53,115 bases of DNA from an uncultured Anaerolineales bacterium. GTDB taxonomy: Bacteria; Chloroflexota; Anaerolineae; B4-G1. The notes under the pieces were generated by a model. That model did no database searches. It worked only from the letters and a program-made list of their open reading frames with translations, and was not told the origin of the DNA. Position numbers and translations under genes: made by a program. The stretch's first letter is position 1. Every line of letters begins with the position of its first letter. Positions 12,878-44,117 of the stretch are shown in pieces. The DNA lies in the NCBI GenBank assembly GCA_964412395.1, contig CAYPOY010000001.1, forward strand, positions 1-53,115, written 5' to 3'.

Positions 12878-12897
12878 TGCACCGTTCCTCCACCTTG

Positions 12898-15186: not shown

Positions 15187-15290
15187 TCCCTACGAATGAG
15201 CGGCAGGTAGACCGGGTAGCCGTTGGCGATGGCCACCGACTGCCGTTGCCACACGTTGCCCAGGCCATCGTCTATTTCTCTATCTCTCCT

Positions 15291-17030
15291 TCAAGGGCCG
15301 TTTCTCAGCACCAGGGGCAGGTAGATGCTATGCCAGTTGGTGCGTACCGTGGCCGTGCGGGTGATGGTCTGGTAGCCCGGCGCGGCGATGACTGCTGTGT
15401 TGGTGATGATTTGGGGGAGGATGACGGTGGCGGTGCCGGAGAGGGTGTAGGTGACGGTGGCGGCGTAGGTGACGGTGATGAGCGGGGTGGGGGTCAGGAC
15501 GCCAGACCAGGTCAGTGTGGGGGCCATCATGGCGTTGATAATGCCGCTCGTGGCGGTCAGGGTCCCAGGCACGTAGACCAACCCATTCTGGATGACGTCA
15601 GTGAGGAGAACGGTTTCATGCAGCGGGCCAGTGTTGTTGCGGATGCCAACGGTGTAGGTAACGCGCTCGCCATAGGAGGCGTATCGGGAAGAAATGGCCT
15701 TGTAGGAGGGGGTGAGGTCAGGGTAATTGGGGGGTAGCATTACTGTGACCGTGGCCGTGCGGGTGATGGTCTGGTAGCCCGGCGCGGCGATGACAGCGCT
15801 GTTGGTGATGACCTGGGGCGCGGTGGCGCTCACGGTGACGGCGTAGGTGACGGTGACGGCAGGGGTGGAGGTCAGGGCGCCGAACCAGTGCAGGGAAGGG
15901 GCGTAGGTATCTGTGACGGTGCCTGCCGTGGCAGTGAGGGTGCCGGGGACGTAGGAGAGACCTGTGGGCACCTCGTCGCTCAGGTAGATGGTGGCGGTGA
16001 GGGGGGCAGCGAGGTCCTGGATAACGACGGTGTAGGTGATGGTCTGGCCGTGCACCGCTGTTTCCGTTGAAGCGGTCTTTTGCGACGTGCTCTCACCACT
16101 GATAAAAGCATTCCATACGCTGTCAATGAAATTGTCCGGCTTGGTGGCAAAAATCTGGGTTGAGTTGGCATTGGCCGTGCTATTGGGATGCGAGTCGCCA
16201 CTGGTGCCGCCGTACTCTTCCTTAAGGCGGTTCGGATGTTCGGCGTGGTCATCGGGGTAAGCCAACACGGCGAACCAGTCAAAGATGGCGACGTTGTTTA
16301 ATCCCGGGTGGGCTGCGTTGTAGCCCGCCCGCCAGTCGTTCTTGAGCCAGTTGTTGAACTCGCGAGCGCGATGGGCCTCGGCATCGTTGGTGGCATCGGA
16401 GGGGGCGTAGTGACGGGGCGGAGCGGTGACGGGGATAAACAGCGTGTCGGGATTCTCGGCAAAGATGTCTTCCAGGGGCTTGTACGTATAGCCACTGCGG
16501 GGGTACGTATGACCCGGACCGTCTGGATGGCGATAGACGGCTTTGTAGTTGGCAGTGGTTTGCGCACTGCTGAAGGGATCTCCTGGCTCAGTGCCATCGC
16601 TGCTGATGTTACTGATCGGGTAGCAACTCTTGAACATGATGATTCTGTTGAAGCCATCGGCACTACCGTGGCTTTTCACACCGTCAAGGTAGTCGTTGAA
16701 CCAAAGGATCCAGTGATTCATGTTTGTGTTGTCGCCCGGTGTGCCTCCCAGCGAGGCTGGCCGTCCGGCGTCGGGTGCCATACTGGTGCCGTAGTAGATG
16801 TCATTGCGTTCGTCAATGTAGTCCTTGGCGAGCAGTGCATCGTGCAGGCTATTGCTGAGCCAGTTATTGCCACAGGAATGGTGAATGAAAACCAGATCGT
16901 CATCGGTGGCGGCAGGGTAAACGTCGCCCTGGGCACTGGCGCCGAACAGCGTGACGGCGCTCACTGTCCCGCTCAACGTCATTAGCAGAACCAGGACGGA
17001 AATCAGTCTGAAGAACCTCTGCGTTTTCAT
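15291..17030 (-). CDS. Secreted protein: unknown N-terminal domain + two DUF11-like repeats + C-terminal IYLPLVLRNGP
   Basis: 579 aa. Signal peptide MKTQRFFRLISVLVLLMTLSGTVSA. Two ~134-aa repeats each end AVIAAPGYQTITRTATV, with a 47-bp perfect nucleotide repeat at 15346..15392 and 15748..15794. Confidence 0.75.
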   Translation of the reverse strand: MKTQRFFRLISVLVLLMTLSGTVSAVTLFGASAQGDVYPAATDDDLVFIHHSCGNNWLSNSLHDALLAKDYIDERNDIYYGTSMAPDAGRPASLGGTPGDNTNMNHWILWFNDYLDGVKSHGSADGFNRIIMFKSCYPISNISSDGTEPGDPFSSAQTTANYKAVYRHPDGPGHTYPRSGYTYKPLEDIFAENPDTLFIPVTAPPRHYAPSDATNDAEAHRAREFNNWLKNDWRAGYNAAHPGLNNVAIFDWFAVLAYPDDHAEHPNRLKEEYGGTSGDSHPNSTANANSTQIFATKPDNFIDSVWNAFISGESTSQKTASTETAVHGQTITYTVVIQDLAAPLTATIYLSDEVPTGLSYVPGTLTATAGTVTDTYAPSLHWFGALTSTPAVTVTYAVTVSATAPQVITNSAVIAAPGYQTITRTATVTVMLPPNYPDLTPSYKAISSRYASYGERVTYTVGIRNNTGPLHETVLLTDVIQNGLVYVPGTLTATSGIINAMMAPTLTWSGVLTPTPLITVTYAATVTYTLSGTATVILPQIITNTAVIAAPGYQTITRTATVRTNWHSIYLPLVLRNGP

Positions 17031-17129
17031 CTTGTGTCTCCTTTGTCATTGGACTTTGGGTAAAGTTGAAGAAACCCGTTTTCTGACGACTTTAGATGAA
17101 GCCGACCAACCCCCGCCTGTAGTGTCGTT

Positions 17130-18407
17130 TTACTTGCTGGCTAACTTCTCTGCCAGTTCCGCAGGCGTTGCAGCCGTGATGGGCTTGTACTCGACACCGG
17201 GATAGTATTGCTTGTAGAAATCCTCCAAACTCAGAGGGCCGGGCCACTTCTGCGGATTGACCGCGATCACGCACCGCACATCCAGGTCACCGATGCCCGC
17301 GTCGGCGGCGCTGCTGCCGATGGTGTAGTGCTTCTCATCCCACGCGCCCTCCACCACAGCACGCGTCCAGGTGGCATCTGCGTTGGGGGGGAGCAACACA
17401 TAGGTGCGCTTGTACTGAGCGCGGGGATGTCCACGGGGCTTCTCATCCTCGCCACCGGGCTCGCCATACACAAAGGGCTTGGCCGGATCTGCCTGCGTAT
17501 GCATGATCAGTTCCTGGGCCACATCCGTCCCGGCTACGTCGAAATCCGACCAGGGTCGGCCGAAACTGCCCCAGGTGAAGATGGTTGCGCCGATGACGTA
17601 ATCGTCCTTTTGCAGTTCCTTGTCGTACCAGACCAATTGTCGGAAGTAGTAGTCAGCTTTGTTCGGCTCGTTGTCGTGCCTGGCCCAGAAGCCGCCCAGT
17701 TGTCGCCACGTCCCACCCGTTTCCACCCCCGGCGGTTTGGGATTCACCAGCGGATCAATGCCGCACTCGGTGATCACCAGTGGCACGTCACCCAACCCCT
17801 TGGGGATCAAGTGCTGGCGGTAGACCTTACGGTAACGCAGTGTTGTCCAGCCCTCGTCCCCTTGGTCAGCGTCGGGGTCCAGTTGGTACTTCCCCGTCAT
17901 CCACCACATCCAGGGACAACTGTACTCGTGGAGGCCGAGGATGGCCTGATACTGCCTGGTAGCCCGAAGGGCCGGGAAGAAGGCAGGCCAGAGAGCCAGG
18001 TCCGGCGTACCGGTGGCGAAATTCCCAATCACGCACTTTAGCCCCAGGTCGGCCATAAGCCGCATCCGTTCCACCTCGAGCTGGGCGTACCAGCCCATTT
18101 CCTCATCGGTGTTCCATATTGGCTCGTTGTGTCCTTCCCAGTACGTGATGCGGGGATTGGATTGGTACGTTCCCAGTTGGTCCTGGACGAACTGCTGCGC
18201 CGCCTCGAGGGGCGTCTTCCCGCTGGCTTTCTGGAGTTGGGCGTCATAGTCTGCTTGATGCTTGCGGCCAATCACCAGAATATCCTCCGGGATATTCTGC
18301 GCCAGTCCCCAGTCGCCCACTAGTTTGATCACTGCCGGGCCAGCCTGGATGTAATCACCCAGATTCGCGGCAGCCCGCAGGACGTGGACACCCAATTTAG
18401 TAGGCAT
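17130..18407 (-). CDS. Clan GH-A (TIM-barrel) glycoside hydrolase-like protein, no signal peptide
   Basis: WEGHNEP (acid/base NEP motif) and PLVITECGID (nucleophile TE-G motif). Start trimmed to ATG 18407 (MPTKLGVHVL), preceded by AAGGAGGAG. ORF track 17130..18461. Confidence 0.72.
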   Translation of the reverse strand: MPTKLGVHVLRAAANLGDYIQAGPAVIKLVGDWGLAQNIPEDILVIGRKHQADYDAQLQKASGKTPLEAAQQFVQDQLGTYQSNPRITYWEGHNEPIWNTDEEMGWYAQLEVERMRLMADLGLKCVIGNFATGTPDLALWPAFFPALRATRQYQAILGLHEYSCPWMWWMTGKYQLDPDADQGDEGWTTLRYRKVYRQHLIPKGLGDVPLVITECGIDPLVNPKPPGVETGGTWRQLGGFWARHDNEPNKADYYFRQLVWYDKELQKDDYVIGATIFTWGSFGRPWSDFDVAGTDVAQELIMHTQADPAKPFVYGEPGGEDEKPRGHPRAQYKRTYVLLPPNADATWTRAVVEGAWDEKHYTIGSSAADAGIGDLDVRCVIAVNPQKWPGPLSLEDFYKQYYPGVEYKPITAATPAELAEKLASK

Positions 18408-18518
18408 TGTGCTCCTCCTTTTTTCTGGCTGTGGACAGTTGGCGGTTGGTTTCTGAGCCAACCGCTCATTGCTAACTGCTGACCTGGAGTGTACTACGAA
18501 ATGGCTTTGGTGGCAAGG

Positions 18519-34679: not shown

Positions 34680-34756
34680 GCGCCCGTACCTCAATTGGAT
34701 AGAGGAGCGGTCTACGAAACCGACTGTTGTGGGTTCGAGTCCCGCCGGGCGCGCCA
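34680..34756 (+). tRNA. tRNA-Arg (anticodon ACG), CCA encoded
   Basis: Hand-folded. Acceptor GCGCCCG/CGGGCGC. D arm CCTC-AATTGGATA-GAGG. Anticodon arm GCGGT-CTACGAA-ACCGA (one G.A mismatch at the base). T arm GTGGG-TTCGAGT-CCCGC. Discriminator G, then CCA. Confidence 0.9.
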
Positions 34757-34762
34757 GTTTTT

Positions 34763-34794
34763 AATGCCCTCCTGCCAGGGAGGGCATTGTTGTT
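34763..34794 (+). terminator. Intrinsic terminator after the tRNA
   Basis: Perfect 10-bp stem aatgccctcc / ggagggcatt with loop tgccag, followed by gttgtt. Confidence 0.7.
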
Positions 34795-35200
34795 AGGAGG
34801 CTGTGCTGTGGATTGAGTAAGTTCCTAAGATTTCCATAAAAATGGCCAGAATGCTTGACAAATGTGTGGATTGTGTGCTATACCGTACATGTATCTGGCG
34901 TGATGTGTACTGCGTCAGGATACATTCTTGCGAAGGAGGGCTGGAAGGATAATGAGATGCCGCTGTCCCTGCAGATAAGGGATGGCGGCTTATTGCTTGT
35001 CAGTGGGGAACCACATCGGAATTTGGTTCTTGATGTAGCCAGTCCCGTCAGCACCACCGGGGCTGGGGGCACCGGGTGGCGGAGTACCCCGCGCAGACCG
35101 GTTATATCATAATCTACAGACCCACAGACGTGTCGCCTCTTCGCTGAAGCTTCTTCTGACTTTGATTCACGTTGCTGGGCCCTGGATCGTGACTGATCAG

Positions 35201-35236
35201 GCTCACGGGTGTTCTCCCGTGAGCTTTATTTGTTTT
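35201..35236 (+). terminator. Canonical intrinsic terminator with no annotated gene upstream
   Basis: 9-bp stem gctcacggg / cccgtgagc, loop tgttct, then tttatttgtttt. Confidence 0.75.
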
Positions 35237-35488
35237 CGGTGACGCCCGCTCCTGGGCGAGCGGGCCAGACAGGCCGCTTGGGCAAGCGGACCTGGGCCGG
35301 GGCACCGTGGCGGAGCACCTCGTGCGTTCTCCTCAAGATGTCGCACGGGGGACAGGGGGCCCTGGCCGAATGCGGAAGGAGGTGATGCGGCTGAGGTAGA
35401 GGAAGCGAGAAAGTGGGGAAACTGTGCGTAGTGTATGCGCGTAGAAATGGCAGCATCCAGTAAGCGAAGAACAAGGAGGAAATGAACA

Positions 35489-38299
35489 ATGAAGAAGCTA
35501 CTGACAATCTGTGCAGCAGCAGGTCTGATCCTGGCGTTTAGCGGCCTTGCCATTGCAGGTGTCCCTGGTGATCTGTTCAACGACGGGGATCGCACAACCG
35601 TCAAGGTCCGTGCAGACGATGCAGACGATTACGCCTACGTCTCGGCGACGTTGTATCCTAACCTTAAGGCAACCGTAGCGGATGGGTGGAAGTCGGTCAG
35701 TCTCCCGTTTGCCGGAAACAACAAGGACAATACGCCCTTCGATGTGGTCCGGGACCGTATGGAGACGATGCGGTTCTACTTCAATTGCAAGGACAGTAGA
35801 TACAACGATCTCGACGATCCGCATATCCAGATCGACAACGTCAAGTTGACTAAAACCGGTCTGTCCGATCTGGTGATTGACAACTTCGACGACGGCAACC
35901 TGAGGTGGTCCTACCAGCAGCACCCCGCACCTTCGAGCCCACCTGGCGGCGTCAGCGTTTCCCTCGCCGATGTCACGGGCAAGGGTAAAGTCCTCGACAT
36001 TCACGTCACCGATATGGATGCCCGGGACTTTGGCCCCAATTGGGAGATGAATTACATCGACATCTTCACCTGCTTGACCAACGACGCCAGTGACAGCTTC
36101 ATCTACGGCGACGACTGGTCGGCCTACGACAACCTCGAATTCGAGTGGCAGGTCCTGGACCCGGGCACGAGAAGGGACTACATTGACCTCTACGTCAGGA
36201 CCGACGTCCTTCGCACGGTGTACGTGGACGACGACTACACGTCCAGCACTCCAGGCTGGGACGTCACTCACTTCAACACGATCCAGGGTGGCATCAATGC
36301 GGTGGGGACCGGTGGGACCGTCTATGTGCTGCCAGGGACCTACCCCGAGAACCTGACCATCCCGAAGTCGCTTACCTTGTCCTGTGCCAGTGGAGGTGGC
36401 ACGACGGTTTACCCGGCAACCTCGGATGTCCAAGGCTCAGCCCCTACTAAGTGCGAGGGCCCCAGTTTCACTGGCTCCCAGATGGTGGTAGTCCAAGCGG
36501 ACGACGTGACCATCGAGCACTGTATCTTCGATGGGAACAACCCGAACATTAGCAGCGGGGAGACAGTGAACGGGGTGGACATTGATGCCCGCAATGGGAT
36601 CATTGTGGACTACCCTTCAGGCGACTATAGCAACCTGGAGGTCCGCTATTGCACCGTTAAGAACATCTTCCTCAGGGCAATCTACCCCGCGGCAGACGGC
36701 TCGGGACACCATATCCACCACAACACGATAGACAATGCGGATGGCTGTGATGGCCAATCAACGGGGGTGATGTTCTACGGGGCGAGTGGAACTGTCAACG
36801 ACAACACCATATCTCGCTGCAAGATCGGGATCATGTACCATCAGAGTTCCGACGGGGACATCATTGAGAACACGGTGTCCGACAGCAAATGTGGCATCGC
36901 GGTAAACGGTAACGATGCCCCAACCAAAGTCTGCTACAACACCGTCACCAACGCTGGCGAGGATGGAGCCATCCAGGCGGTGAGCGTGGACGAGTCGGTA
37001 GACATCTGCTGCAACGAAGTCACCGGAGACAGCGACGGGATCATCGTCTACGGTGGCCACGACGAGTCCATAGAAATCTTCGACAACAAGCTCACCGGCG
37101 ATGGTAACCATTCGGGACTTCTGATCACCACGGACTTGACCCCTTGGGGTTCCGAGGATTCCACCGGCGTGGATGCCTGGGGCAACACGATTACCAACTA
37201 TGACAAAGGTGTTGAGGTAGATAGTCCTATAGTTGGCAATACTGTCACCGCCATGGTAAAGGGCAACAACATCTCTGGCAATGTCACCTGGGGCGCGGAG
37301 AATAGCGATGCCGGCTCTACACTGGACGCCACCAACAACTGGTGGGGAAGCCCCACTGGGCCAAAGCATGCCACTGGCAATCCTGGCGGAACGGGTGATA
37401 ATGTCTCGGACAACGTCCTCTACAATCCCTGGGCGCAGGCGCTGGTGGTGCTGGATCCCTGGCGCACGGAGCTACACGAGTGCGAGGAGGTGATGTTGGA
37501 CGTCAAGGTCAGGGCCAACAATATGTACGGAATCCAGTTCATCGTCCACTTCGATCCGACCAACCTCCAGGTCACCGATGCGGGCTGGACTCCTGATCCG
37601 TTCTACCCGGATCAGATAATATGGGATGCAGTGGTGGACAACGTCGGCGGCACGGTGAAATTCGCCGCCACCCAAAGAGACGACATGCATTCCGACCCAG
37701 TCACTCTGATGTGGGATGAGGTGGCCTACGTGACCTTCCACTGCATTGGGCCGAGCTACGATCACATCTGGCTCGAGGAGCTGATGCTGGGCGAGAAGGA
37801 AGAAGGTATGGAGATCCCATCAACCTACACCTCGGCCTGCATCAAGAACATCCCACCCGAGGCCGGGAGCATCACCGGGCAGGTGGATCTCCAGGGCCGC
37901 ACGGATGAGAAGGGGGCCATCATCACCACAAGCCCCGGTGGCTACTGGTCAGCCAGCGACTCGGCTGGCAACTACACCATCTCGAACGTCCCACCCGGGA
38001 CGTACACCGTGAACCCCGAGATGACCCTGTACCTCGACAGCTCGAAGAGCGGTGTGGTGGTCAACACAGGTGCGACGACGACGCTGAGCCAGGTCAGGTT
38101 GCTCGGTGGCGACTGCAACGATAGTGAGCATATCGAGATCCACGATGCGACCATCATCGGCTCCGCCTTTGGCTCGGTGCCCACCGACTCCAACTGGGAT
38201 CCAAGGGCCGACATCAACGCCGATGGGAAGGTGAACATCCTTGACGCGGTGATCCTGGGCGGCAACTGGGATAAGTGCAGCCCGGTTTCCTGGCCATAA
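35489..38299 (+). CDS. Secreted multidomain protein: CBM-like N-terminus, parallel beta-helix (PbH1 repeats), cohesin-like module, CarboxypepD_reg-like domain, C-terminal dockerin
   Basis: Signal peptide MKKLLTICAAAGLILAFSGLAIAG, with AAGGAGGA 8 nt upstream. Beta-helix rungs (HCIFDGNN, VRYCTVKNIF, HHNTIDNA, NDNTISRC, IENTVSDS, CYNTVTNA). Cohesin-like LDVKVRANNMYGIQFIVHFDPTNLQVTD. GSITGQVDLQGRTDEKGAII...NYTISNVPPGTYTV. Dockerin loops DCNDSEHIEIHD and DINADGKVNILD. Confidence 0.85.
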   Translation: MKKLLTICAAAGLILAFSGLAIAGVPGDLFNDGDRTTVKVRADDADDYAYVSATLYPNLKATVADGWKSVSLPFAGNNKDNTPFDVVRDRMETMRFYFNCKDSRYNDLDDPHIQIDNVKLTKTGLSDLVIDNFDDGNLRWSYQQHPAPSSPPGGVSVSLADVTGKGKVLDIHVTDMDARDFGPNWEMNYIDIFTCLTNDASDSFIYGDDWSAYDNLEFEWQVLDPGTRRDYIDLYVRTDVLRTVYVDDDYTSSTPGWDVTHFNTIQGGINAVGTGGTVYVLPGTYPENLTIPKSLTLSCASGGGTTVYPATSDVQGSAPTKCEGPSFTGSQMVVVQADDVTIEHCIFDGNNPNISSGETVNGVDIDARNGIIVDYPSGDYSNLEVRYCTVKNIFLRAIYPAADGSGHHIHHNTIDNADGCDGQSTGVMFYGASGTVNDNTISRCKIGIMYHQSSDGDIIENTVSDSKCGIAVNGNDAPTKVCYNTVTNAGEDGAIQAVSVDESVDICCNEVTGDSDGIIVYGGHDESIEIFDNKLTGDGNHSGLLITTDLTPWGSEDSTGVDAWGNTITNYDKGVEVDSPIVGNTVTAMVKGNNISGNVTWGAENSDAGSTLDATNNWWGSPTGPKHATGNPGGTGDNVSDNVLYNPWAQALVVLDPWRTELHECEEVMLDVKVRANNMYGIQFIVHFDPTNLQVTDAGWTPDPFYPDQIIWDAVVDNVGGTVKFAATQRDDMHSDPVTLMWDEVAYVTFHCIGPSYDHIWLEELMLGEKEEGMEIPSTYTSACIKNIPPEAGSITGQVDLQGRTDEKGAIITTSPGGYWSASDSAGNYTISNVPPGTYTVNPEMTLYLDSSKSGVVVNTGATTTLSQVRLLGGDCNDSEHIEIHDATIIGSAFGSVPTDSNWDPRADINADGKVNILDAVILGGNWDKCSPVSWP

Positions 38300-38356
38300 G
38301 GCTGACCAGGCATCGGTTCATCAAGGCTGACGTTGGCTTGACCACAGAAAGAAGGA

Positions 38357-38393
38357 GGGAGGTGGTGCCTCAGGAGATGGGGCACCACCTCCC
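38357..38393 (+). terminator. Strong 13-bp hairpin downstream of the dockerin gene (no clear U-tract)
   Basis: gggaggtggtgcc (38357..38369) pairs with ggcaccacctccc (38381..38393). Confidence 0.4.
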
Positions 38394-38748
38394 TGGAGGC
38401 AGATAGCCGAGGCTGTGTTGCTTACGGTTATGGCGGAGGGTAGAACCCGCACGGTAAGCGTCCAGCGAAGCTTCGCCTCAAACCGACAAGAGAAATGGGA
38501 CGCAGATGCACGCAGATAAAAGCAGAAAAATCAGCGTAGATCAGCGTTCATCTGCGTCCAGAATCTTGCCTCGTTGTAAACAATTTGTACCTGTAGATCA
38601 GAAACCCGGTTTTTGATGCTCCACAAGCAAAGTAGTGTTGGCTGCAGGCGCTTTTCGGAGAACAAATGGGTTCCTCCGGCAGGGAAAACCGGGTTTCCTG
38701 GTCTCCGGCTGAACGGTTGCTCTGCGTGTAGCGAGAGGAAAGGACCAG

Positions 38749-39855
38749 ATGAAACTGTGGGGTTCGATTGACCTGAGAAAGCAGCCATGCCGGACGATCC
38801 TCCGGTTGGTCGCGATACAAATGAGCATAGCTCTGCTGGTTTGCCTGCCTGGACTGGGACAGGCGACCACGGTCTGGGCGCAAGAGGGAGTGACGGTACG
38901 GCCAGATCCCTCGTCGCTGGAGGTAGAGGCAGGAAGCACAGGCGCGGTGGACATCCTGGTGGAGAATGTGACCGATCTCTATGGGATCGAGTTTGAAATC
39001 ACCTTCGACCAGGCGCTGCTGGAGGTGGTAGATGCCGACCCCGTGAGAGAAGGCATCCAGATTCAGCCAGGCGACTTGCTCAGCCCAGACTGGCTTCTCG
39101 ACAACACCGTTGACAATGACAACGGGACCGTAGCTTATGCCCTCTGCCAACTGAACCCCAGCCCGCCGCAGAGTGGGGACGGGGTCCTAGCCATCATCAC
39201 CTGGCGCAGCAAGGCCGTGGGGACAAGCCCCATTCACTTCGCCTACGTGCTGCTGGGTGCGCCGGGAGGCGTGGAGATCCCAGCCAGTGCCGGGGATGGC
39301 CAGATCATCGTCGTATCTGCTCAAGCCCCACCAGCCGACACCCTGACGCCTACGGCTGCGCCCACGGGGACCCCCACCCCTGTGCCACCAACGTCCGCAC
39401 CGACTTCCACCCCGATACCACCAATCTCCACACCGACCTTCACCCCGATCCCACCAACGTCCACACCGCCAGCGACGGCCGTTCCGGAGGCCACGGAGAC
39501 GCCAGCGGCCACGCCGACCTCAACTCCGCCCAACACGACGACACCTACGGGCGTGCCCACGTCTGTGTCTACGCCGACCTCCACCCCGCTGCCGACAGCA
39601 ACGCCTGTCGTGCAAGGGACAGAGCCTTCCTCGCCCACAGCGACCGCAGTTCAGCCCACAAGCACTGCTGTATCAGCGGCAGCCGCCCATCCTGTGCCTA
39701 CCCAGACGGAAGCCTCGCCAATGCCCTTAACCCCCACACCGGTCTCACCTTCGGGCTCGTCAGGGATTTCGACAGGTAGCCTGACGTACGTCGCCCTCGC
39801 TTGCCTGGTTGTGGCAGCGCTCGGTGCATGGGTATTATGGAGACGAATGCGGTAA
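38749..39855 (+). CDS. Membrane-anchored cohesin-domain protein (signal peptide, cohesin, long Pro/Thr linker, C-terminal TM helix)
   Basis: Cohesin block VDILVENVTDLYGIEFEITFDQALLEVVDADP...NGTVAYALCQLNP...GVLAIITWRSKAVGTSPIHF. About 170 aa of PT-rich linker. C-terminus LTYVALACLVVAALGAWVLWRRMR. Confidence 0.8.
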   Translation: MKLWGSIDLRKQPCRTILRLVAIQMSIALLVCLPGLGQATTVWAQEGVTVRPDPSSLEVEAGSTGAVDILVENVTDLYGIEFEITFDQALLEVVDADPVREGIQIQPGDLLSPDWLLDNTVDNDNGTVAYALCQLNPSPPQSGDGVLAIITWRSKAVGTSPIHFAYVLLGAPGGVEIPASAGDGQIIVVSAQAPPADTLTPTAAPTGTPTPVPPTSAPTSTPIPPISTPTFTPIPPTSTPPATAVPEATETPAATPTSTPPNTTTPTGVPTSVSTPTSTPLPTATPVVQGTEPSSPTATAVQPTSTAVSAAAAHPVPTQTEASPMPLTPTPVSPSGSSGISTGSLTYVALACLVVAALGAWVLWRRMR

Positions 39856-39879
39856 CCCTGGATCCAGGAGAGGTGGGCA

Positions 39880-41094
39880 ATGAACGCAATGAAAAGGATA
39901 AAAAGGATGAAAAGTATCCGCAATAGCCTGGATACCCTCCGGCAACGACTGTGCTGGACGGGCCTGCGGGTGGCAGCATGGCTGACAATCGCCTGCTTAC
40001 TGCTGTTTTTCTTCGGCAACAGTGGGCTGGCAACGATAGGCTGGGCCGACGGATCCACAACGGTGAGCATCGCCCCTGCCTCACAGGAGATCTTCCTGGG
40101 AGGCACTGACGTCACCGATGTCCTGGTCGAGGACGTGACCGATCTCTACGGGTTTGAATTTGAGATTGCCTTTGACCCGGCGATACTGGAGGTGGTGGAT
40201 GCCGACCCTGGAAAGGCAGGGGTACAGATCCAGCCGGGCGACTTTCTCAGCCCGGACTGGCTTCTCGAAAACTCGGTTGACAATGACAACGGGAGCATAG
40301 CTTATGCCCTTTGCCAACTGAACCCCAGCCCGCCGCAGAGTGGGGATGGTGTCCTGGCTAGCATCACCTGGCGTGGCAAGATTATGGGGACAAGCCCAAT
40401 CACCTTGACCTATGTGCAGTTGGGTGCGCCGCGTGGCGTACCAATTCCGGCCAGCACCCAGGATGGTGAGATTACGGTGGGAGAACCCTCTCCCGGGCCC
40501 ACCATCGCCAGCCTCAGCCCGGGCTCGGCCACGGCGGGCAGCCCGGCCTTCGCCCTCACGGTCAACGGCACCAACTTCGTCAGCGGCTCGACCGTGCGCT
40601 GGGACGCCGCAGCCCGGACGACCACCTTCATCAGCAGCACACAACTCACCGCTGCCATCACCGCTGCCGACATCGCCGCCGCGGGCACGATCAGCGTCAC
40701 GGCGGTCAATCCCGCGCCTGGCGGTGGCACGTCCAATGCTCTGCTCTTCACAATCGCCAACCCCGCACCGACCATCACCAGCCTCAGCCCCATCTCGGCC
40801 ACGGTGGGCGGCCCAGCCTTCACCCTTACCGTCAACGGCAGCAACTTCGTCAGCGGCTCAACCGTGCAGTGGGACGGCTCGGCCCGGGCAACGACGTTTG
40901 TCAGTAACACGCAACTCACCGCCGCCATCACCGCCGCCGACGTCATCACGGCAGGCGTGGTCAGTGTCACGGTGGCCGACCTGCTTGGGCCTGGCGGTGG
41001 CACGTCCAACGCGCTGCCCTTCGAGATTACCGAGCTGGGTCCGGAACCCCCAGCCAGCCTTGTTTACCTGCCGCTCATTCTCAACAATCACTAG
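39880..41094 (+). CDS. Cohesin-domain protein with two IPT/TIG-like repeats and C-terminal LVYLPLILNNH
   Basis: The cohesin block matches 38749..39855 at 89 of 116 aligned residues (hand count). Two repeats: PTI(A/T)SLSP.SATAG.PAF.LTVNG.NFVSGSTV.WD...RTTTF.S.TQLTAAITAAD. N-terminal signal anchor. Confidence 0.8.
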   Translation: MNAMKRIKRMKSIRNSLDTLRQRLCWTGLRVAAWLTIACLLLFFFGNSGLATIGWADGSTTVSIAPASQEIFLGGTDVTDVLVEDVTDLYGFEFEIAFDPAILEVVDADPGKAGVQIQPGDFLSPDWLLENSVDNDNGSIAYALCQLNPSPPQSGDGVLASITWRGKIMGTSPITLTYVQLGAPRGVPIPASTQDGEITVGEPSPGPTIASLSPGSATAGSPAFALTVNGTNFVSGSTVRWDAAARTTTFISSTQLTAAITAADIAAAGTISVTAVNPAPGGGTSNALLFTIANPAPTITSLSPISATVGGPAFTLTVNGSNFVSGSTVQWDGSARATTFVSNTQLTAAITAADVITAGVVSVTVADLLGPGGGTSNALPFEITELGPEPPASLVYLPLILNNH

Positions 41095-41112
41095 GACGTG
41101 GTCAGGAGTCTT

Positions 41113-41730
41113 ATGGGCAGAGCGGAGAACTCCAGAGTGCCACCGGTTCAGTATACACGGACGTTCGTCCGCATCGTGGGGCTTGTCTTGCTCATCGAGC
41201 AACTTCTCATCGGCCTCCCATCTACTCACACGCTGGCCTGCACCAAGAACGCGCCATCCGAGTCAGGCGCTATCACCGGGAAGGTGGACCTCCAGGGCCG
41301 CACCGATGAGCAGGGCGCCATCGTCTTCATCAGCCCCGGTGGCACCGGTGGCTACTTGTCAGTCAGCGACTCCAGCGGCAACTACACCATCTCGAACGTC
41401 CCGCCCGGTACGTACGACGTAAGCATTGAGATGACACTGTACCTGGGTGCCTCGAAGAGTGATGTGGTGGTCAGTGCGGGTGAGACCACGACGCTCAGCC
41501 CGGTCAGGTTGCTCGGTGGCGACTGCAACGACGATGACATTGTCAGCACCCTGGATGCGACCATCATCGGCGCCACCTTCGGCTCGGCGCCCGGCGACGC
41601 CAACTGGGATCCACTGGCCGACGTCAACGACGATGGGAAGGTGAACATCCTTGACGCGGCGCTCTTGGGCCAGAACTGGAACAAGTCCAGCCCGGTTCCC
41701 TGGCCATGGGGCACCATCTGCTTCCCTTGA
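41113..41730 (+). CDS. Small CarboxypepD_reg + dockerin protein (duplicate of the C-terminal module of 35489..38299)
   Basis: GAITGKVDLQGRTDEQGAIVF...NYTISNVPPGTYDV. Dockerin loops DCNDDDIVSTLD and DVNDDGKVNILD. The ORF track starts at GTG 41098. ATG 41113 has CAGGAG upstream. It is unclear whether the N-terminal ~45 aa are a real signal/anchor. Confidence 0.65.
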   Translation: MGRAENSRVPPVQYTRTFVRIVGLVLLIEQLLIGLPSTHTLACTKNAPSESGAITGKVDLQGRTDEQGAIVFISPGGTGGYLSVSDSSGNYTISNVPPGTYDVSIEMTLYLGASKSDVVVSAGETTTLSPVRLLGGDCNDDDIVSTLDATIIGATFGSAPGDANWDPLADVNDDGKVNILDAALLGQNWNKSSPVPWPWGTICFP

Positions 41731-41819: not shown

Positions 41820-42266
41820 CTACTTCCGCTTGACCTTGATAACCTTGGGTCTGGTCTCCTCGGCCTTGGGCAAAGTTAGCGTCAGCGCGCCGTTCTCGAA
41901 GACCGCCTCGGCCTTCCCCGCGTCCACAGGCACGTTCAGTGTCAGCGTGCGCGAGAATGCGCCATAAGGTCGCTCCTGGAACAGATACTCGACGTTCTCC
42001 AACGGTGGTCGCAACTCGCCACGGATGGTCAGGGTATCGCCTTGGATGACGATATCCAGCTCATCGGGGGTCAGTCCGGGCAGCGATGCGACGATGGCGA
42101 TCTCCTCCGGGGTCGTGTACACGTCCAGCGGGAGCCGAAGCGGCCGTTCCCGTGAACTTTCACCCCAACTCCGCGCCGGGCGGACGAAACTTTCTTCAAA
42201 GAGTTGATCCATCGCCTCGCGCAAGGTCATCATCTCGCGCCATGGATTCCAGCGTGTTATGGTCAT
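41820..42266 (-). CDS. Small heat-shock protein (Hsp20/alpha-crystallin family)
   Basis: MTITRWNPWREMMTLREAMDQLFEESF...PLDVYTTPEEIAIVASLPGL...GAFSRTLTLNVPVDAGKAEAVFENGALTLTLPK. GGGAGGTGG RBS. ORF track 41820..42416 trimmed. Confidence 0.92.
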   Translation of the reverse strand: MTITRWNPWREMMTLREAMDQLFEESFVRPARSWGESSRERPLRLPLDVYTTPEEIAIVASLPGLTPDELDIVIQGDTLTIRGELRPPLENVEYLFQERPYGAFSRTLTLNVPVDAGKAEAVFENGALTLTLPKAEETRPKVIKVKRK

Positions 42267-42326
42267 CTTACCACCTCCCTGGTTCAATAAGTAGCATAGG
42301 CCCTTGTGGCCGTTCCACAAGGGGCC

Positions 42327-42481
42327 TAGGCTAGTTTTCGGTACAAAACTGTTTTCCAATGCTCCCAGTCCCCGTCCCAGGGGCGGTTTGGGCGCGAAAA
42401 CCGTGTCAAAGAGCAATTGTCTCTCGCATGGGCCGCCCCCGAGACGGGGGCTTTGAGCGTTTTGTACCGAGAACTAGGCTA
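42327..42481. mobile_element. About 155-bp inverted-repeat element between the two hsp20 genes (MITE-like or regulatory)
   Basis: Arms aggctagttttcggtacaaaac (42328..42349) and gttttgtaccgagaactaggct (42460..42480) are complementary at 20 of 22 positions. A 36-nt internal core recurs at 20553..20588 and, inverted, at 24112..24139. Confidence 0.5.
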
Positions 42482-42523: not shown

Positions 42524-42982
42524 CTACTCCTTCTCCTTAGCCTTGACCTTGATCGCCTTAGGCTTGATCTCTTCAGCCTTGGGGAGTGTCAGGGTCAGAA
42601 CACCGTTCTCAAACTCAGCCTCCGCCTTGTCGGCCACGACCGGGAGTGGGATGGTCAGCGAACGGCAGAAAGAGCCATAGCGCCGCTCGCGATGGATGTA
42701 CCCTTTCTCTTTGACCTCTTCCTCGGTCTTGGTCTCGCCCTTGATAGTCAGGGTATCGCTGGTGATGCTGATGTCTATGTCCTTGGGCTCGACGCCAGGA
42801 ATGGCCGACTTGACGACGATGGCGTCATCAGTCTCATACATATCCACGGCCAATGTTTCCGCCCCGACTGGGGCCAGCCACCTGGCCCGGGGTCGTACGA
42901 AGCTCTCCTCGAAGAGTCGGTCCATTGCATCCCGCAGGCTGACCAGGTCATGGAAGGGCTCCCAACGCACCAAGTTCGTCAT
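42524..42982 (-). CDS. Small heat-shock protein (Hsp20/alpha-crystallin family)
   Basis: MTNLVRWEPFHDLVSLRDAMDRLFEESF...AVDMYETDDAIVVKSAIPGV...GSFCRSLTIPLPVVADKAEAEFENGVLTLTLPK. AAGGAGG RBS. Confidence 0.92.
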   Translation of the reverse strand: MTNLVRWEPFHDLVSLRDAMDRLFEESFVRPRARWLAPVGAETLAVDMYETDDAIVVKSAIPGVEPKDIDISITSDTLTIKGETKTEEEVKEKGYIHRERRYGSFCRSLTIPLPVVADKAEAEFENGVLTLTLPKAEEIKPKAIKVKAKEKE

Positions 42983-43352: not shown

Positions 43353-43401
43353 CGTCAGCCGCTAACTGCTAACGGCTAACAACTAACGACTGACGGCTAA
43401 C
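43353..43401. repeat. Heptamer tandem array (NNCTAAC x6-7)
   Basis: cgtcagc cgctaac tgctaac ggctaac aactaac gactgac ggctaac. The response-regulator stop codon (complement of 43383..43385) and its last 5 codons (LAVSR) lie inside the array. Confidence 0.9.
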
Positions 43402-44117
43402 CGCTCCTTGCGGAAGTCTACGAAGCGGTACCCCGTCCCACGTTCGGTAAAAATGTAGCGGGGATGGGATGGGTCGGGTTCGATCTTTTGCCGCAGGTAG
43501 GTGACATACAGGCGCAGGTACTGAATTTCCTCGCGATACTCATAGCCCCAGACCTTAGCCAACAGTGTCTTGTGGGGCACTACCCATCCTGCGTTTTCTA
43601 TCAGGTGGTACAACAGGCGGAATTCGGTCGGGCGCAACTTGATGCGCTGGCCCTCGACGATGACCTCGCGACTGTTGAAGTCTACGCTCAGCCGGTCGTC
43701 AATGTGGAGAATGGTCTCTTCTGGCGTCACCAGGCCCTGTGTACGGCGTAGCACTGCCCTGACACGGCTGACGAGCTCACGAGCACCGAAGGGCTTGGTC
43801 ACATAATCATCGGCTCCCAGCTCCAGCCCGCGCACCTTGTCCTCCTCGTCGGACCGGACTGTAAGCATAATTACCGGGACGTTGGAGACTTGGCGCAGTA
43901 TCTCCAAAGTATCGAAGCCATCCAGTTCAGGCATCATCACATCGAGGATGACCAAGTCGGGCAGGCTAGTACGCGTTTTGTCGAGCGCCTCCAGTCCATC
44001 GTGGGCTTCTATTACCCGGTATCCCTCAAGTTCCAGGTTCATACGGATGAACCGGGTCATGCGAGGTTCGTCATCTACGACCAGAATAAGCCCAGGGCGA
44101 GCTGACATAACGAGCAA
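43383..44117 (-). CDS. OmpR/PhoB-family response regulator (receiver + winged helix, KdpE-like)
   Basis: [34 protein letters not shown]. w[34 protein letters not shown]...[13 protein letters not shown]...[12 protein letters not shown]. Confidence 0.92.

Follow-up and report, generated by a model that had tools for sequence, protein, structure and literature searches.

A putative cohesin–dockerin surface-display locus with a beta-helix payload in a Chloroflexota genome

Organization of the Locus

The locus lies in a stretch of 53,115 nucleotides from an uncultured Anaerolineales bacterium of the phylum Chloroflexota (contig CAYPOY010000001.1), hereafter the window. An ORF check recovered all four co-oriented genes of the original prediction on the + strand, designated here G1 to G4. 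The genes and associated features, including the X-module–dockerin (XDoc) dyads, are as follows:

34680–34756: tRNA-Arg(ACG)
35489–38299, + strand: G1, payload protein, 936 aa
G1 aa 1–23: signal peptide
G1 aa 24–240: region without assignable family, additional to the modules originally predicted
G1 aa ~241–648: right-handed beta-helix
37433–37864, + strand: payload-type cohesin of G1, aa ~649–792
37865–38296, + strand: XDoc-like dyad of G1, with an X-module/CarboxypepD_reg-like sandwich (aa ~793–868) and a dockerin (aa ~869–936, ending SPVSWP)
38356–38394, + strand: perfect 17-bp, GC-rich hairpin, ~55 nt past the G1 stop codon
38749–39855, + strand: G2, putative membrane anchor, 368 aa; signal peptide, anchor-type cohesin (aa 46–192), Pro/Thr linker of ~145 aa, C-terminal hydrophobic helix, RRMR
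39880–41094, + strand: G3, second putative anchor, 404 aa; signal peptide, anchor-type cohesin (aa 58–204), two choice-of-anchor-Z/TIG repeats (aa 205–382), YLP-box LVYLPLILNNH
41113–41730, + strand: G4, XDoc protein without cargo, 205 aa counted from the corrected start ATG (ORF as first listed, 41098–41730); signal peptide (probable cleavage TLA|C), X-module/CarboxypepD_reg, dockerin

Nearly all of the predicted modules were recovered across the four genes with Pfam and NCBIfam models, profiles and AF2 models, and the proteins carry the expected signal peptides and surface-anchor features. The locus may be self-contained as described, although no distinct ligand for the G1 cohesin is visible within the window. 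The tRNA-Arg gene named as a neighbour is present, but its adjacency is incidental: the ortholog locus L002 lacks it, and the window contains no second copy of the tRNA 3′ end and is flat in GC content. The hairpin has a folding energy of −45.1 kcal/mol (z −5.4; none of 200 shuffles folds as well) and is devoid of a T-run; it may act as a terminator or attenuator between G1 and G2–G4. Elsewhere in the window are genes for a GH3, a CBM96 protein and a further beta-helix whose match to chondroitinase B is weak. No sugar transporter or catabolic genes were found adjoining the locus.

The Payload Protein and Its Beta-Helix

Against Pfam, G1 matched Beta_helix (7.6e-13) and Dockerin_1 (27.9 bits; gathering threshold, GA, 22.9), while CarboxypepD_reg (31.1 bits) was slightly below its GA of 32.3 and Cohesin (16.2 bits) was below its GA of 24.1. 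The local HMMs BHEL, COH and CASS gave 4e-143, 2e-44 and 3e-71, respectively.

The beta-helix was modelled by AF2 at pLDDT ~90. Its Foldseek neighbours are AlgE4/AlgE6 and other polysaccharide-active helices, including alginate epimerases and lyases, PL6, RbmB, GH28, GH136 and inulin fructotransferases, at identities of no more than 16%, and its sequence profile touches pectinesterase and one PL6 lyase. No CAZy-type family was reached, the matches being to the generic Beta_helix and NosD models; likewise, no catalytic motif was identified in the helix and no family-level or catalytic-residue assignment was obtained. The invariant residues form mostly a structural Asn ladder, with the addition of D366/R368/N369. 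The helix most likely binds or modifies polysaccharide, and it could also be purely structural or adhesive. The payload had been described as a beta-helix rather than a glycosidase. The beta-helix is confirmed, but the contrast is drawn too sharply, because the nearest folds are polysaccharide epimerases, lyases and hydrolases and the cargo of sister loci includes GH130/GH32-like and Amidase_2 domains.

Two Classes of Cohesins

G2 and G3 matched the Pfam Cohesin model with 36 and 27.1 bits, respectively. The G1 module, although sub-threshold in Pfam, is a genuine cohesin, since its orthologous modules in L002 pass GA (38.9 and 44.5 bits), the payload-type cohesin profile matches about 20 solved PDB cohesins (best E 4.6e-14) and aligns to the anchor-type profile with 99.7% probability in hhalign, and superposition of the AF2 model on cohesins gives TM 0.7–0.8, with 0.77 for PDB 2XDH. 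Generic EF-hand loops are ruled out by the Pfam scores above GA and by the AF2 match to XDoc dyads and cohesins, which bear out the cohesin and dockerin assignments.

The cohesins fall into two sequence classes that follow protein context. With HMMs trained on four loci only, 72 of the 75 cohesins in proteins without an XDoc cassette score as anchor-type, and 37 of the 52 that sit directly ahead of a cassette score as payload-type. The G1 cohesin scored 178 bits as payload-type and 39 bits as anchor-type; payload and anchor cohesins are ~26% identical. G2 and G3 share 58% identity over 207 aa (E 1e-75), and the earlier hand count for their cohesins was exactly reproduced, the best 116-column stretch containing 89 identities. 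Both classes resemble type II cohesins by sequence (best hits, ScaB type II cohesins), so class alone cannot tell the partner of the XDoc.

The XDoc Dyad

The predicted G1 dockerin loops DCNDSEHIEIHD and DINADGKVNILD, read as Ca loops, were found at aa 875 and 908. The AF2 model of aa 645–936, built on an alignment of 14 sequences, reached pLDDT 86 and pTM 0.58, a value that would fit either contact or no contact between the G1 cohesin and its own dockerin. The best Foldseek match of the last 292 aa was the CipA C-terminus (CohI9-X-DocII; E 2e-21, ~310 columns). The XDoc part matched 4u3s_B, 2b59_B, 5g5d_B, 5k39_B and 5m0y_B at TM 0.74–0.77, with rmsd of 2.3–2.9 Å and 19–24% identity; this predicted geometry may in part echo PDB structures on which the network was trained. 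The CarboxypepD_reg sandwich described earlier is present, but interpreting it as an X-module within a predicted type-II-like XDoc dyad fits better. Under this reading, the G1 C-terminus would be equivalent to that of the scaffoldin CipA, and the dockerin would be expected to pair with the anchor cohesins of G2 and G3. In the cellulosome, the XDoc dyad plugs the scaffoldin into cell-surface anchoring cohesins.

When diverged payload paralogs of the same locus are compared, conservation is highest in the dockerin (51–64%, versus 31–37% for the payload cohesin). This would fit a shared receptor, although the argument is weak because Ca loops keep dockerins generally well conserved.

Anchor Proteins and the Cargo-Less XDoc

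The cohesin, Pro/Thr linker and C-terminal TM helix ascribed to G2 are supported by Pfam, by composition and by orthologs in L002, L079 and L082, which share its architecture. Residues 190–335 are 78% Pro/Thr/Ser/Ala and are followed by the hydrophobic helix and the RRMR tail, for which no curated sorting-signal model scored above cutoff.

G3 contains the expected TIG-like repeats (Pfam TIG 2e-14, two stretches; NCBIfam NF058597 CoaZ_rpt_PGGG, 223 bits), and its YLPL-type end corresponds to the NCBIfam “YLP-box putative sorting motif”. The tail passes NF053834 (11.8 bits, cutoff 10) and is below the cutoff of NF050076 (12.7 bits, cutoff 15); two further window proteins pass both models. The G3 ortholog in L002 is 75% identical and ends in LVYLPLILNNR. 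In the sampled Chloroflexota loci, YLP tails were found specifically on CoaZ proteins. As a sorting motif, the YLP-box has only “putative” status, and we know of no processing enzyme. For cohesin proteins, no earlier account of a YLP-box was found in the literature.

G4 is, as predicted, a small protein with CarboxypepD_reg (41.5 bits) and Dockerin_1 (38.8 bits) as its only Pfam domains. Its start was corrected to the ATG at 41113, because homologs P0002 (207 aa) and P0003 (217 aa), short G4-like proteins kept in other samples, conserve that N-terminus. G4 is 65% identical to aa 760–936 of G1, the match starting upstream of the CarboxypepD_reg domain.

Recurrence in Chloroflexota

Dozens of Chloroflexota genomes contain the same kit, a widespread type of which no description was found in the literature. 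A local HMM census covered 44 loci, mostly from Chloroflexota, with 68 cassette proteins, and a cohesin lies directly upstream of the cassette in 54 of them (79%). In 27 of the 44 loci (28 with the window), payload genes with the order cargo–cohesin–X–dockerin are directly followed, on the same strand, by small cohesin-only genes, and in 17 of these loci a cohesin-only gene has a TM helix and a basic tail. Together with the gene order conserved in L002, L079 and L082, these counts strongly support the synteny in related genomes. The cassette profile retrieved 1,019 representatives (protein clusters) at E ≤ 1e-30.

In three fusions (L095, L104 and L089), an extra cohesin past the XDoc scores higher as anchor-type, by only 7.6 bits in L089, and a YLP tail closes the fusions of L095 and L104; the three fusions give Rosetta-stone support for a link between XDoc and anchor cohesins. 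The sister-locus cargo comprises GH130/GH32-like, Amidase_2, LamG, SdrD_B, DUF11 and propeller domains. Cargo-less proteins with two payload-type cohesins and an XDoc are represented by P0004, P0005 and L093. A second, X-less dockerin type is present in L079 and L115; in most census loci, the cassette dockerin is the sole type visible.

Proposed Assembly and Alternatives

Starting from the module identities, signal and anchor features, the predicted XDoc fold, the two cohesin classes and the conserved gene order, we infer binding events, pairing specificity, localisation and beta-helix activity as follows. The locus is read, with somewhat better than even confidence, as a cohesin–dockerin cell-surface display system of a type widespread in Chloroflexota, which hangs a secreted beta-helix on the cell. 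G1 would be secreted, and its C-terminal XDoc would bind the anchor-type cohesins of G2 and G3 with Ca2+. The C-terminal helix of G2 would sit in the cytoplasmic membrane beneath the Pro/Thr stalk, and the YLP-box would attach G3 to the envelope. The beta-helix would thereby be held outside the cell, most likely to bind or modify polysaccharide. The G1 cohesin, which is of the other class, could serve as an extra socket, whether for G4, for a second G1 or for a protein from another part of the genome. G4, secreted and cargo-less, would occupy unbound cohesins with its XDoc or cap them. The matches to CipA CohI9-X-DocII and to XDoc chains count in favour of the docking on anchor cohesins. Strictly speaking, this is no cellulosome, in agreement with the original prediction.

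A self-propagating polymer, in which the G1 dockerin would bind the payload-type cohesin of the next G1, seems unlikely. Double-cohesin adaptors would branch the chains, G2 and G3 would hold the first unit and G4 would end the chains; a filamentous bacterium would thereby be covered by a surface layer or sheath rich in beta-helices. This could explain why most cassette proteins have a cohesin of their own just ahead of the XDoc, why the cassette dockerin is alone in most loci and why cohesin-less G4-like proteins are conserved; moreover, the double payload cohesins of P0004, P0005 and L093 make sense only with a dockerin bound in trans. However, the low identity between payload and anchor cohesins suggests different ligands, the X-less dockerin of L079 and L115 could be the true ligand of the payload cohesins, and the diverse sister cargo (GH-like, amidase, propellers) is easier to reconcile with a display platform than with a uniform lattice. 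No evidence of any sort points to a sheath. In CipA Coh-X-DocII, the closest solved analogue, the adjacent cohesin does not bind the dockerin type of its own chain.

It is similarly improbable that the locus encodes a minimal catabolic complex, “cellulosome-like” for another polymer, with assembly as in the display model and a tethered lyase, epimerase or hydrolase serving nutrient acquisition rather than envelope architecture or adhesion. The fold neighbours and profile matches of the helix, the GH130/GH32-like cargo of sister loci and the GH3, CBM96 and second beta-helix proteins of the window are in line with this purpose. Against it stand the generic character of the family matches, the lack of an identified catalytic motif among mostly structural invariant residues, locus flanks free of sugar transporter and catabolic genes, and the non-enzymatic cargos (LamG, SdrD_B, DUF11, propellers).

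That the modules are non-pairing homologs with other roles, such as Ca-dependent folding or the binding of carbohydrate or cell wall, and clustered only through a shared surface location, is very improbable: a 2009 genome survey by Peer et al. reportedly noted few demonstrated partners for cohesin- and dockerin-like modules outside cellulosome producers, but cohesin-only and dockerin genes lie tightly together in fixed order in the 27 loci, the two modules are naturally fused in L095, L104 and L089, and the predicted XDoc geometry matches complexes whose sole known role is cohesin binding.

Comparison with Known Systems

The display system that we favour most resembles the C-terminus of Clostridium thermocellum CipA (CohI9-X-DocII in complex with type II cohesins from anchoring scaffoldins; PDB 3KCP, 4FL4 and 2B59). 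As in G1, the order is cohesin, beta-sandwich X-module and dockerin; in both systems the XDoc-adjacent cohesin differs in class from those of the dedicated anchors, and anchor proteins are encoded beside the payload. In contrast to CipA, where these modules end a nine-cohesin scaffoldin, the Coh-X-Doc of G1 has one cohesin and is fused straight to its cargo. The anchors here have a TM helix or a YLP-box, whereas cellulosome anchors use SLH domains; the window is without CBM3 and GH cargo, the middle domain of G1 and G4 is filed by Pfam under CarboxypepD_reg, and the host belongs to Chloroflexota rather than Firmicutes.

The adaptor scaffoldins Acetivibrio cellulolyticus ScaB and Ruminococcus flavefaciens ScaA, which relay or amplify attachment, also combine cohesin(s) and a dockerin in one protein. 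Unlike them, G1 is no dedicated adaptor but the cargo itself, bearing a 400-aa beta-helix; adaptor-like proteins here are P0004 and P0005 (two cohesins and XDoc) and P0020 and P0021 (cohesin and dockerin).

Non-cellulosomal modules known from genome surveys, such as the Archaeoglobus fulgidus cohesin (2XDH), likewise occur in organisms without cellulosomes, where single proteins may carry both cohesin and dockerin and function is unassigned. In contrast to these scattered modules, an ordered, recurrent cluster with dedicated anchors and a Coh-X-Doc cassette conserved across the phylum offers a concrete, testable assembly model. G3 shares its tail and two CoaZ repeats with the NCBIfam YLP-box (NF050076, NF053834) and choice-of-anchor Z (NF058597) families, although it ends in NNH and the usual YLP-box tail ends in Arg.

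Gene organization of the locus

The four genes G1 to G4, encoding the payload protein, the two anchors and a small protein that carries an X-module–dockerin dyad (XDoc) and no cargo, lie in the same orientation and are arranged as follows.

34680-34756, tRNA-Arg(ACG), upstream of G1
34757-35488, + strand, non-coding leader of 730 nt between tRNA-Arg and G1
35489-38299, + strand, G1, ORF of 936 aa
38356-38394, + strand, perfect 17-bp GC-rich hairpin 3′ of G1 (−45 kcal/mol, z −5.4)
38749-39855, + strand, G2, ORF of 368 aa
39880-41094, + strand, G3, ORF of 404 aa
from the ATG at 41113, + strand, G4, 205 aa

The N-termini of all four products are signal-peptide-like, as read from the sequence together with Kyte–Doolittle segments. 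G4 shares 65% identity with G1 aa 760–936 and, judging from this, derives from the 3′ end of G1. The possibility that it is a decaying duplicate was rejected, because the short form and the intact signal peptide are conserved in other samples, where the N-terminus and its AxA-type cleavage site are kept in homologs P0002 and P0003. G4 has been kept as a separate, small secreted protein.

G2, G3 and G4 are tightly packed, with gaps of 24 nt (G2–G3) and 18 nt (G3–G4). The G1–G2 spacer is unusually long, 450 nt compared to 113 nt in L002, the orthologous locus of another Anaerolineales genome. The hairpin in this spacer has no T-run and is a candidate terminator, attenuator or repeat element. Since it follows G1 and the next three genes are closely spaced, G1 may be transcribed apart from G2–G4. 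Within the leader, two hairpins followed by T-rich tails (34959-34989 and 35199-35226) resemble terminators. A search of the whole window against Rfam returned the tRNA as the sole match, with none in the leader or in the G1–G2 gap.

The proximity of tRNA-Arg, pointed out in the original prediction, turned out to be incidental. No repeat of the tRNA 3′ end was found in the window with up to 3 mismatches allowed, the GC-content of the locus (0.575–0.637) is inside the overall range of the window, and the L002 locus has no tRNA and has upstream genes unlike those of the window. A tRNA-linked genomic island, whose marks would be an integrase, a directly repeated tRNA 3′ end, atypical composition and variable occupancy of one tRNA site, was rejected on these grounds. 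Directly downstream of the locus are two adjoining Hsp20/alpha-crystallin genes (41820-42416 and 42524-42982, − strand), and then a response regulator gene (43383-44117), with no evident tie to G1–G4.

Assignment of cohesin and dockerin modules

Pfam gathering thresholds (GA) were 24.1 bits for Cohesin (PF00963), 22.9 bits for Dockerin (PF00404) and 32.3 bits for CarboxypepD_reg. A cohesin was accepted above GA or where profiles or the fold spoke equally well for a cohesin beta-sandwich, and a dockerin with two Ca-binding loop-helix repeats and a score above GA. The domain composition originally predicted by eye was largely borne out by these searches. G2 (36 bits) and G3 (27.1 bits) contain cohesins above GA, and G3 also has TIG matches in two stretches (2e-14). 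G4 consists of a CarboxypepD_reg domain (41.5 bits) and a dockerin (Dockerin_1, 38.8 bits). In G1, Beta_helix (7.6e-13) and NosD (5e-6) matches are accompanied by a CarboxypepD_reg match slightly below GA (31.1 bits) and a C-terminal Dockerin_1 match above it (27.9 bits). The two dockerin loops of G1 lie at aa 875 and aa 908, and the structural model puts two helices at the expected positions. Both G1 and G4 therefore carry true dockerins. Generic EF-hand or thrombospondin repeats were rejected as an explanation of the loops, given the Dockerin_1 scores above GA and a fold that matches XDoc. The earlier hand count of identities between the G2 and G3 cohesins, 89 in the best 116-column stretch, was reproduced exactly; across 207 aa the two proteins are 58% identical.

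The cohesin-like module of G1 scores 16.2 bits, below GA, and is nevertheless genuine. The equivalent cohesins in both payload proteins of L002 reach 38.9 and 44.5 bits. The profile of nine payload cohesin modules (A1) matches some 20 cohesins of solved structure (best E 4.6e-14), and its alignment to the profile of anchor cohesins (A2) with hhalign has a probability of 99.7% (E 2.7e-27). The model of the G1 module superposes on cohesins with TM 0.7–0.8. Hence G1, G2 and G3 all possess a cohesin.

The C-terminal cassette of G1 and its likeness to CipA

The C-terminal part of G1 (aa 645–936) was modelled with AF2 on the extended-cassette alignment A5, which is shallow (14 sequences). The model features two beta-sandwiches and a two-helix dockerin, with a mean pLDDT of 86 and a pTM of 0.58, a value at which the placement of the cohesin relative to XDoc is not fixed in the predicted structure. 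The AF2 model of full-length G1 does not resolve the cassette, because the alignment is shallow there.

In a Foldseek search of the PDB, the top matches of the cassette model were the CohI9–X-module–type II dockerin fragments of Clostridium thermocellum CipA (3kcp_A and chains C, I and L of 4fl4; E 2e-21 to 1e-19, ~310 columns). They were followed by the XDoc dyads 4u3s_B, 4wi0_B, 2b59_B, 5g5d_B, 5k39_B and 5m0y_B (TM 0.74–0.77, rmsd 2.3–2.9 Å, 19–24% identity, ~151–155 of ~156 residues) and then by numerous cohesins, among them the non-cellulosomal 2xdh from Archaeoglobus. The C-terminus of G1 thus shares its module order with that of the scaffoldin CipA. An XDoc dyad is defined by a beta-sandwich X-module directly N-terminal to the dockerin and packed with it as one rigid unit, and such a unit is seen in the predicted structure of G1. 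The CarboxypepD_reg-like sandwich of the original prediction does exist, but in the model this domain takes the place of the X-module, as indicated by the Foldseek ranking of the CipA fragment and then of XDoc dyads.

Cellulosomal XDoc dyads attach to type II cohesins carried by anchoring proteins of the cell surface, and another dockerin type is the ligand of the cohesin neighbouring XDoc.

Two classes of cohesins

Cohesins of the compared loci were classified by context with separate HMMs for the payload type (A1) and the anchor type (A2). Almost all cohesins of proteins lacking the cohesin–X-module–dockerin cassette (Coh-X-Doc) are of anchor type (72 of 75), and those directly preceding the cassette are mostly of payload type (37 of 52, with 9 of anchor type and 6 ambiguous). 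Proteins of three loci, L095, L104 and L089, have an extra cohesin after XDoc. It scores higher as anchor type in all three, with a margin of only 7.6 bits in L089. Two of these fusions have the following layout.

L095, 1-3900, 1,299 aa: cargo, payload cohesin, XDoc, anchor-type cohesin, YLP tail
L104, 633-6782, 2,049 aa: cargo, payload cohesin, XDoc, anchor-type cohesin, YLP tail

As one chain joins both elements in L095, L104 and L089, the natural fusions link XDoc with the anchor cohesin by a Rosetta-stone argument. Binding of XDoc to the type II cohesin of an anchor protein is predicted indirectly, from gene order and the L095 and L104 fusions. Among diverged payload paralogs within a locus, the dockerin is conserved best (51–64%), followed by the X-module (34–51%) and the cohesin (31–37%). 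This weakly fits many cargos sharing one common receptor, since the constraints on Ca-loops also conserve dockerins.

Small proteins of ~268 aa, P0021 (L079, 7384-8190), P0020, P0022 and P0040, look like adaptors composed of a signal peptide, an anchor-type cohesin 74–76% identical to that of G3 and a Cys-rich dockerin of a different type with no X-module. This dockerin is a candidate ligand of payload-type cohesins.

Anchors

In G2, the cohesin is followed by a linker (aa 190–335) that is 78% Pro/Thr/Ser/Ala, a hydrophobic helix and the basic tail RRMR, in agreement with the earlier reading. At the C-termini of G2 and its orthologs, a conserved stretch rich in Ser and Gly leads into a hydrophobic helix and then a basic tail. 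Sortase/exosortase-type signals, including PEP-CTERM, are recognized by a signature motif, a TM helix and a basic tail scoring above a curated cutoff. The G2 tail matches such models in their generic TM-plus-basic part, and reaches none of the curated cutoffs (GVDTG_CTERM 18.3 bits, cutoff 29; NPXTG 17.1, cutoff 23.5; LPXTG 12.7, cutoff 15.9), so a known sortase-type signal was rejected. Our reading of G2 is that of a membrane anchor with a long Pro/Thr stalk; the alternative is a sorting signal not yet catalogued.

The YLP-box is an extreme C-terminal motif [VI][YF]LP[LM]hh(R), listed in NCBIfam as a "putative sorting motif" with two models, NF053834 and NF050076. No description of it was found in the literature. 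The G3 tail LVYLPLILNNH, scanned as a 28-aa peptide, exceeds the cutoff of the first model (11.8 bits, cutoff 10) but not of the second (12.7 bits, cutoff 15), so that the YLPL-type C-terminus proposed for G3 is recognized by one model of the two. The TIG-like repeats of G3 belong to the choice-of-anchor Z family (CoaZ, NF058597), with two copies, 223 bits against a cutoff of 30 bits, and E 2.5e-67. Among CoaZ-repeat proteins of 76 loci, the Chloroflexota ones (L003, L007, L024) have YLP tails and the Acidobacteriota ones have another conserved C-terminal domain or nothing; the C-termini vary by phylum, which is the "choice of anchor" pattern of the family name. In Blastocatellia (L004, L011, L018, L020, L029) and other Acidobacteriota loci, CoaZ proteins end with a conserved domain of ~45 aa (…GLDQxNVRLPRxLxGRGEV…VxIK) and no YLP-box. 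This domain may resemble the Solibacter-type C-terminal domain.

Minimal anchors also occur: P0033 (194 aa), L082 13598-14239 and L121 12998-13570 consist of one anchor-type cohesin with a YLP-like tail, such as KVYLPAIYRMH, almost directly after it. The P0033 tail has no score with either NCBIfam YLP model. Within the window, a second cluster of surface proteins lies at 11075-18461 on the − strand.

11075-13009, − strand, CBM96 and DUF11
12898-15186, − strand, beta-helix, weak chondroitinase-B and weak choice-of-anchor Q matches, tail VYLPLIMRE
15291-17030, − strand, DUF11 repeats, tail IYLPLVLRNGP
17130-18461, − strand, 443 aa, no Pfam match, TIM-barrel glycosidase-like by eye

The tails of 12898-15186 and 15291-17030, both encoding large secreted proteins, pass both YLP models. 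In this cluster, the beta-helix cargo is joined straight to the YLP-box, not via a dockerin and a cohesin.

Cargo

The cargo of G1 (aa ~241–648) is confidently modelled as a right-handed beta-helix (AF2 pLDDT ~90). Its Foldseek neighbours include mannuronan C-5 epimerases AlgE4 and AlgE6 (TM 0.55–0.59; AlgE6 E 7e-7, TM 0.55, 16% identity), alginate epimerase/lyases, PL6 lyases, the VPS lyase RbmB, inulin fructotransferases, GH28, GH136 and tailspikes, as well as the adhesin PfbA; identity to all of them is at most 16%. In Pfam, the cargo matches generic Beta_helix and NosD models only; at the level of sequence profiles, its N-terminal cap resembles pectinesterase and its body NosD. The residues invariant in 21 homologs mostly form a structural Asn ladder, with D366, R368 and N369 in addition, and no AlgE-type DPH motif is visible by eye in the G1 translation. 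Membership in a beta-helix enzyme family requires a family-level sequence match together with the catalytic residues of that family. The G1 helix resembles polysaccharide lyases, epimerases and GH28-type enzymes at the level of fold only and was not placed in any of these families. With polysaccharide-active neighbours at ≤16% identity and a profile match limited to the cap and NosD, the predicted fold class is clear but the enzyme family is not, and binding or modification of a polysaccharide is the likeliest activity of the cargo.

The region N-terminal to the helix (aa 24–240, window 35558-36208; AF2 pLDDT ~30) has no Pfam match, no PDB sequence match and no family; the loci and proteins compared contain no homolog of it, and it is not internally repetitive. 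P0049, a close homolog of G1, is too short (721 aa) to hold it. From motifs such as IQIDNVKL, one might guess at one or two CBM-like beta-sandwiches.

The cargo of sister loci is diverse, with GH130/GH32-like propellers, Amidase_2 with Big_1, NHL and Reg_prop propellers, LamG with SdrD_B and DUF11, and several proteins without any match. Such variety suggests a display platform of general use, with beta-helices as its most frequent cargo.

Proposed mode of assembly and comparison with cellulosomes

We propose that XDoc would dock the secreted cargo on anchor-type cohesins, those of G2 at the membrane and of G3 with its putative YLP-box; the own cohesin of G1 would be an additional socket, and G4 would fill or cap free cohesins. 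On balance this display model seems probable, if by a small measure. What the analysis shows are the modules, the predicted folds, the two cohesin classes and the conserved gene order; binding, its specificity, the localisation and the activity of the cargo are inferred.

Assembly of cargo head-to-tail into a polymer or sheath, with chains ended by G4, is considered unlikely. That the same assembly serves polymer catabolism has a similarly low probability in our estimate. This reading is compatible with the display model, differing only in purpose, and may be set beside both the polysaccharide-active neighbours of the G1 helix and its generic Pfam matches. A little less credible still is a phylum-wide self-extending system, in which all cargo proteins, each with a socket (cohesin) and a plug (XDoc) of its own, would polymerise head-to-tail from the membrane and YLP-box anchors. 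The product would be a protein layer or sheath surrounding the filament, an envelope structure made with cohesins and dockerins and not an enzyme complex, and XDoc proteins lacking a cohesin, such as G4, would terminate the chains and set the thickness. Finally, the notion that there is no pairing at all between the cohesins and the dockerins is highly improbable beside the conserved order of payload and cohesin genes and the fusions.

A cellulosome sensu stricto comprises a multi-cohesin primary scaffoldin with a cellulose-binding CBM, and, as cargo, dockerin-bearing enzymes of GH, CE or PL families that degrade plant cell walls. The cohesin-bearing proteins of the window have a single cohesin each, G1–G4 have no CBM matches, the cargo of G1 was placed in no GH, CE or PL family, and G4 has no cargo domain. 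A cellulosome was therefore rejected, as the original prediction had anticipated. In its predicted working, the Chloroflexota system resembles the step by which cellulosomes are anchored through XDoc and type II cohesins. The system departs from known ones in having Coh-X-Doc fused straight to every cargo, in its anchors, a C-terminal TM helix and a putative YLP-box, in its occurrence in the phylum Chloroflexota, and in the presence of XDoc proteins with no cargo or with two cohesins.

Peer et al. 2009 reportedly described the existence of non-cellulosomal cohesins and dockerins. The role of these modules outside cellulosome-producing Firmicutes has been a question since the first genome surveys. 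With its three cohesins, a pair of nearly identical XDoc dyads, anchors of two kinds and a single cargo, the locus turns it into a small test, and the family extends to dozens of genomes and >1,000 protein clusters. If the predicted pairing is true, the CipA-type mechanism of inserting Coh-X-Doc into an anchor cohesin would prove far more ancient, or more mobile, than the cellulosome. The pairing would also give the uncharacterised, putative YLP-box sorting signal of Chloroflexota a first functional context, explain the surface decoration of abundant, mostly uncultured Anaerolineae, with a bearing on flocs and biofilms in wastewater and sediment, and supply new orthogonal cohesin–dockerin pairs for synthetic scaffolds.

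Distribution of the locus type

Literature searches found no description of a Chloroflexota cohesin–dockerin system, and on Chloroflexi cohesins and dockerins only CAZy-style metagenome counts. In the species-representative genome set, a full-length G3 ortholog was found only in L002 (an Anaerolineales MAG, 75% identity). Its locus encodes, in order, a 734-aa protein with an N-terminal domain of no family and Coh-X-Doc, a 740-aa beta-helix–Coh-X-Doc protein, a G2 ortholog and a G3 ortholog ending in LVYLPLILNNR. L079 has a 1384-aa beta-helix–Coh-X-Doc protein and then three cohesin proteins, one of them a cohesin–Cys-rich dockerin adaptor. In L082, three beta-helix–Coh-X-Doc proteins are accompanied by a G2-like anchor and by an XDoc protein with two cohesins. 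G1 itself is also present on the assembly GCA_034430995.1.

The genome scan with the X-module and dockerin profile A4 gave ~45 full-length matches, nearly all in Chloroflexota (Anaerolineales, Caldilineaceae, Ardenticatenaceae, Ktedonobacterales and "Chloroflexia"); matches in other phyla were mostly to the dockerin alone. Local HMMs detected 68 cassette proteins in 44 loci. A cohesin immediately precedes the cassette in 54 of these proteins, and 22 have a G1-type beta-helix. Cohesin-only genes follow immediately downstream on the same strand in 27 of the 44 loci (28 including the window), and many of the loci without them are incomplete contigs. In 17 of these loci a cohesin-only product has a TM helix with a basic tail, and several have YLP tails. 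The synteny that the original prediction proposed to check is thus found well beyond this genome.

A search of a representative library of 1.84 billion proteins with the A5 profile, which covers a pair of cohesins together with X-module and dockerin, yielded 1,019 proteins at E ≤ 1e-30. Among the best 150 of them, inspected by eye, most have Coh-X-Doc at the extreme C-terminus of proteins of 200–3,100 aa, about one-fifth have about 170–300 residues beyond the cassette, like the L095, L104 and L089 fusions, and repeat proteins with no relation to the family account for a few.

Neither the A4 genome scan nor the search with the anchor cohesin brought up a cultured carrier, and cohesins and dockerins are reported absent from six Anaerolineae genomes, including A. 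thermophila UNI-1 (PMC4877987). The Coh-X-Doc system is therefore common in Chloroflexota, though not universal.

Payload genes may be repeated within a locus. L103 (2754-12379) has five tandem paralogous payload genes encoding proteins of ~600–640 aa each, with N-terminal parts of ~300–450 aa that have no Pfam family, and L113 also has five payloads, one with Amidase_2.
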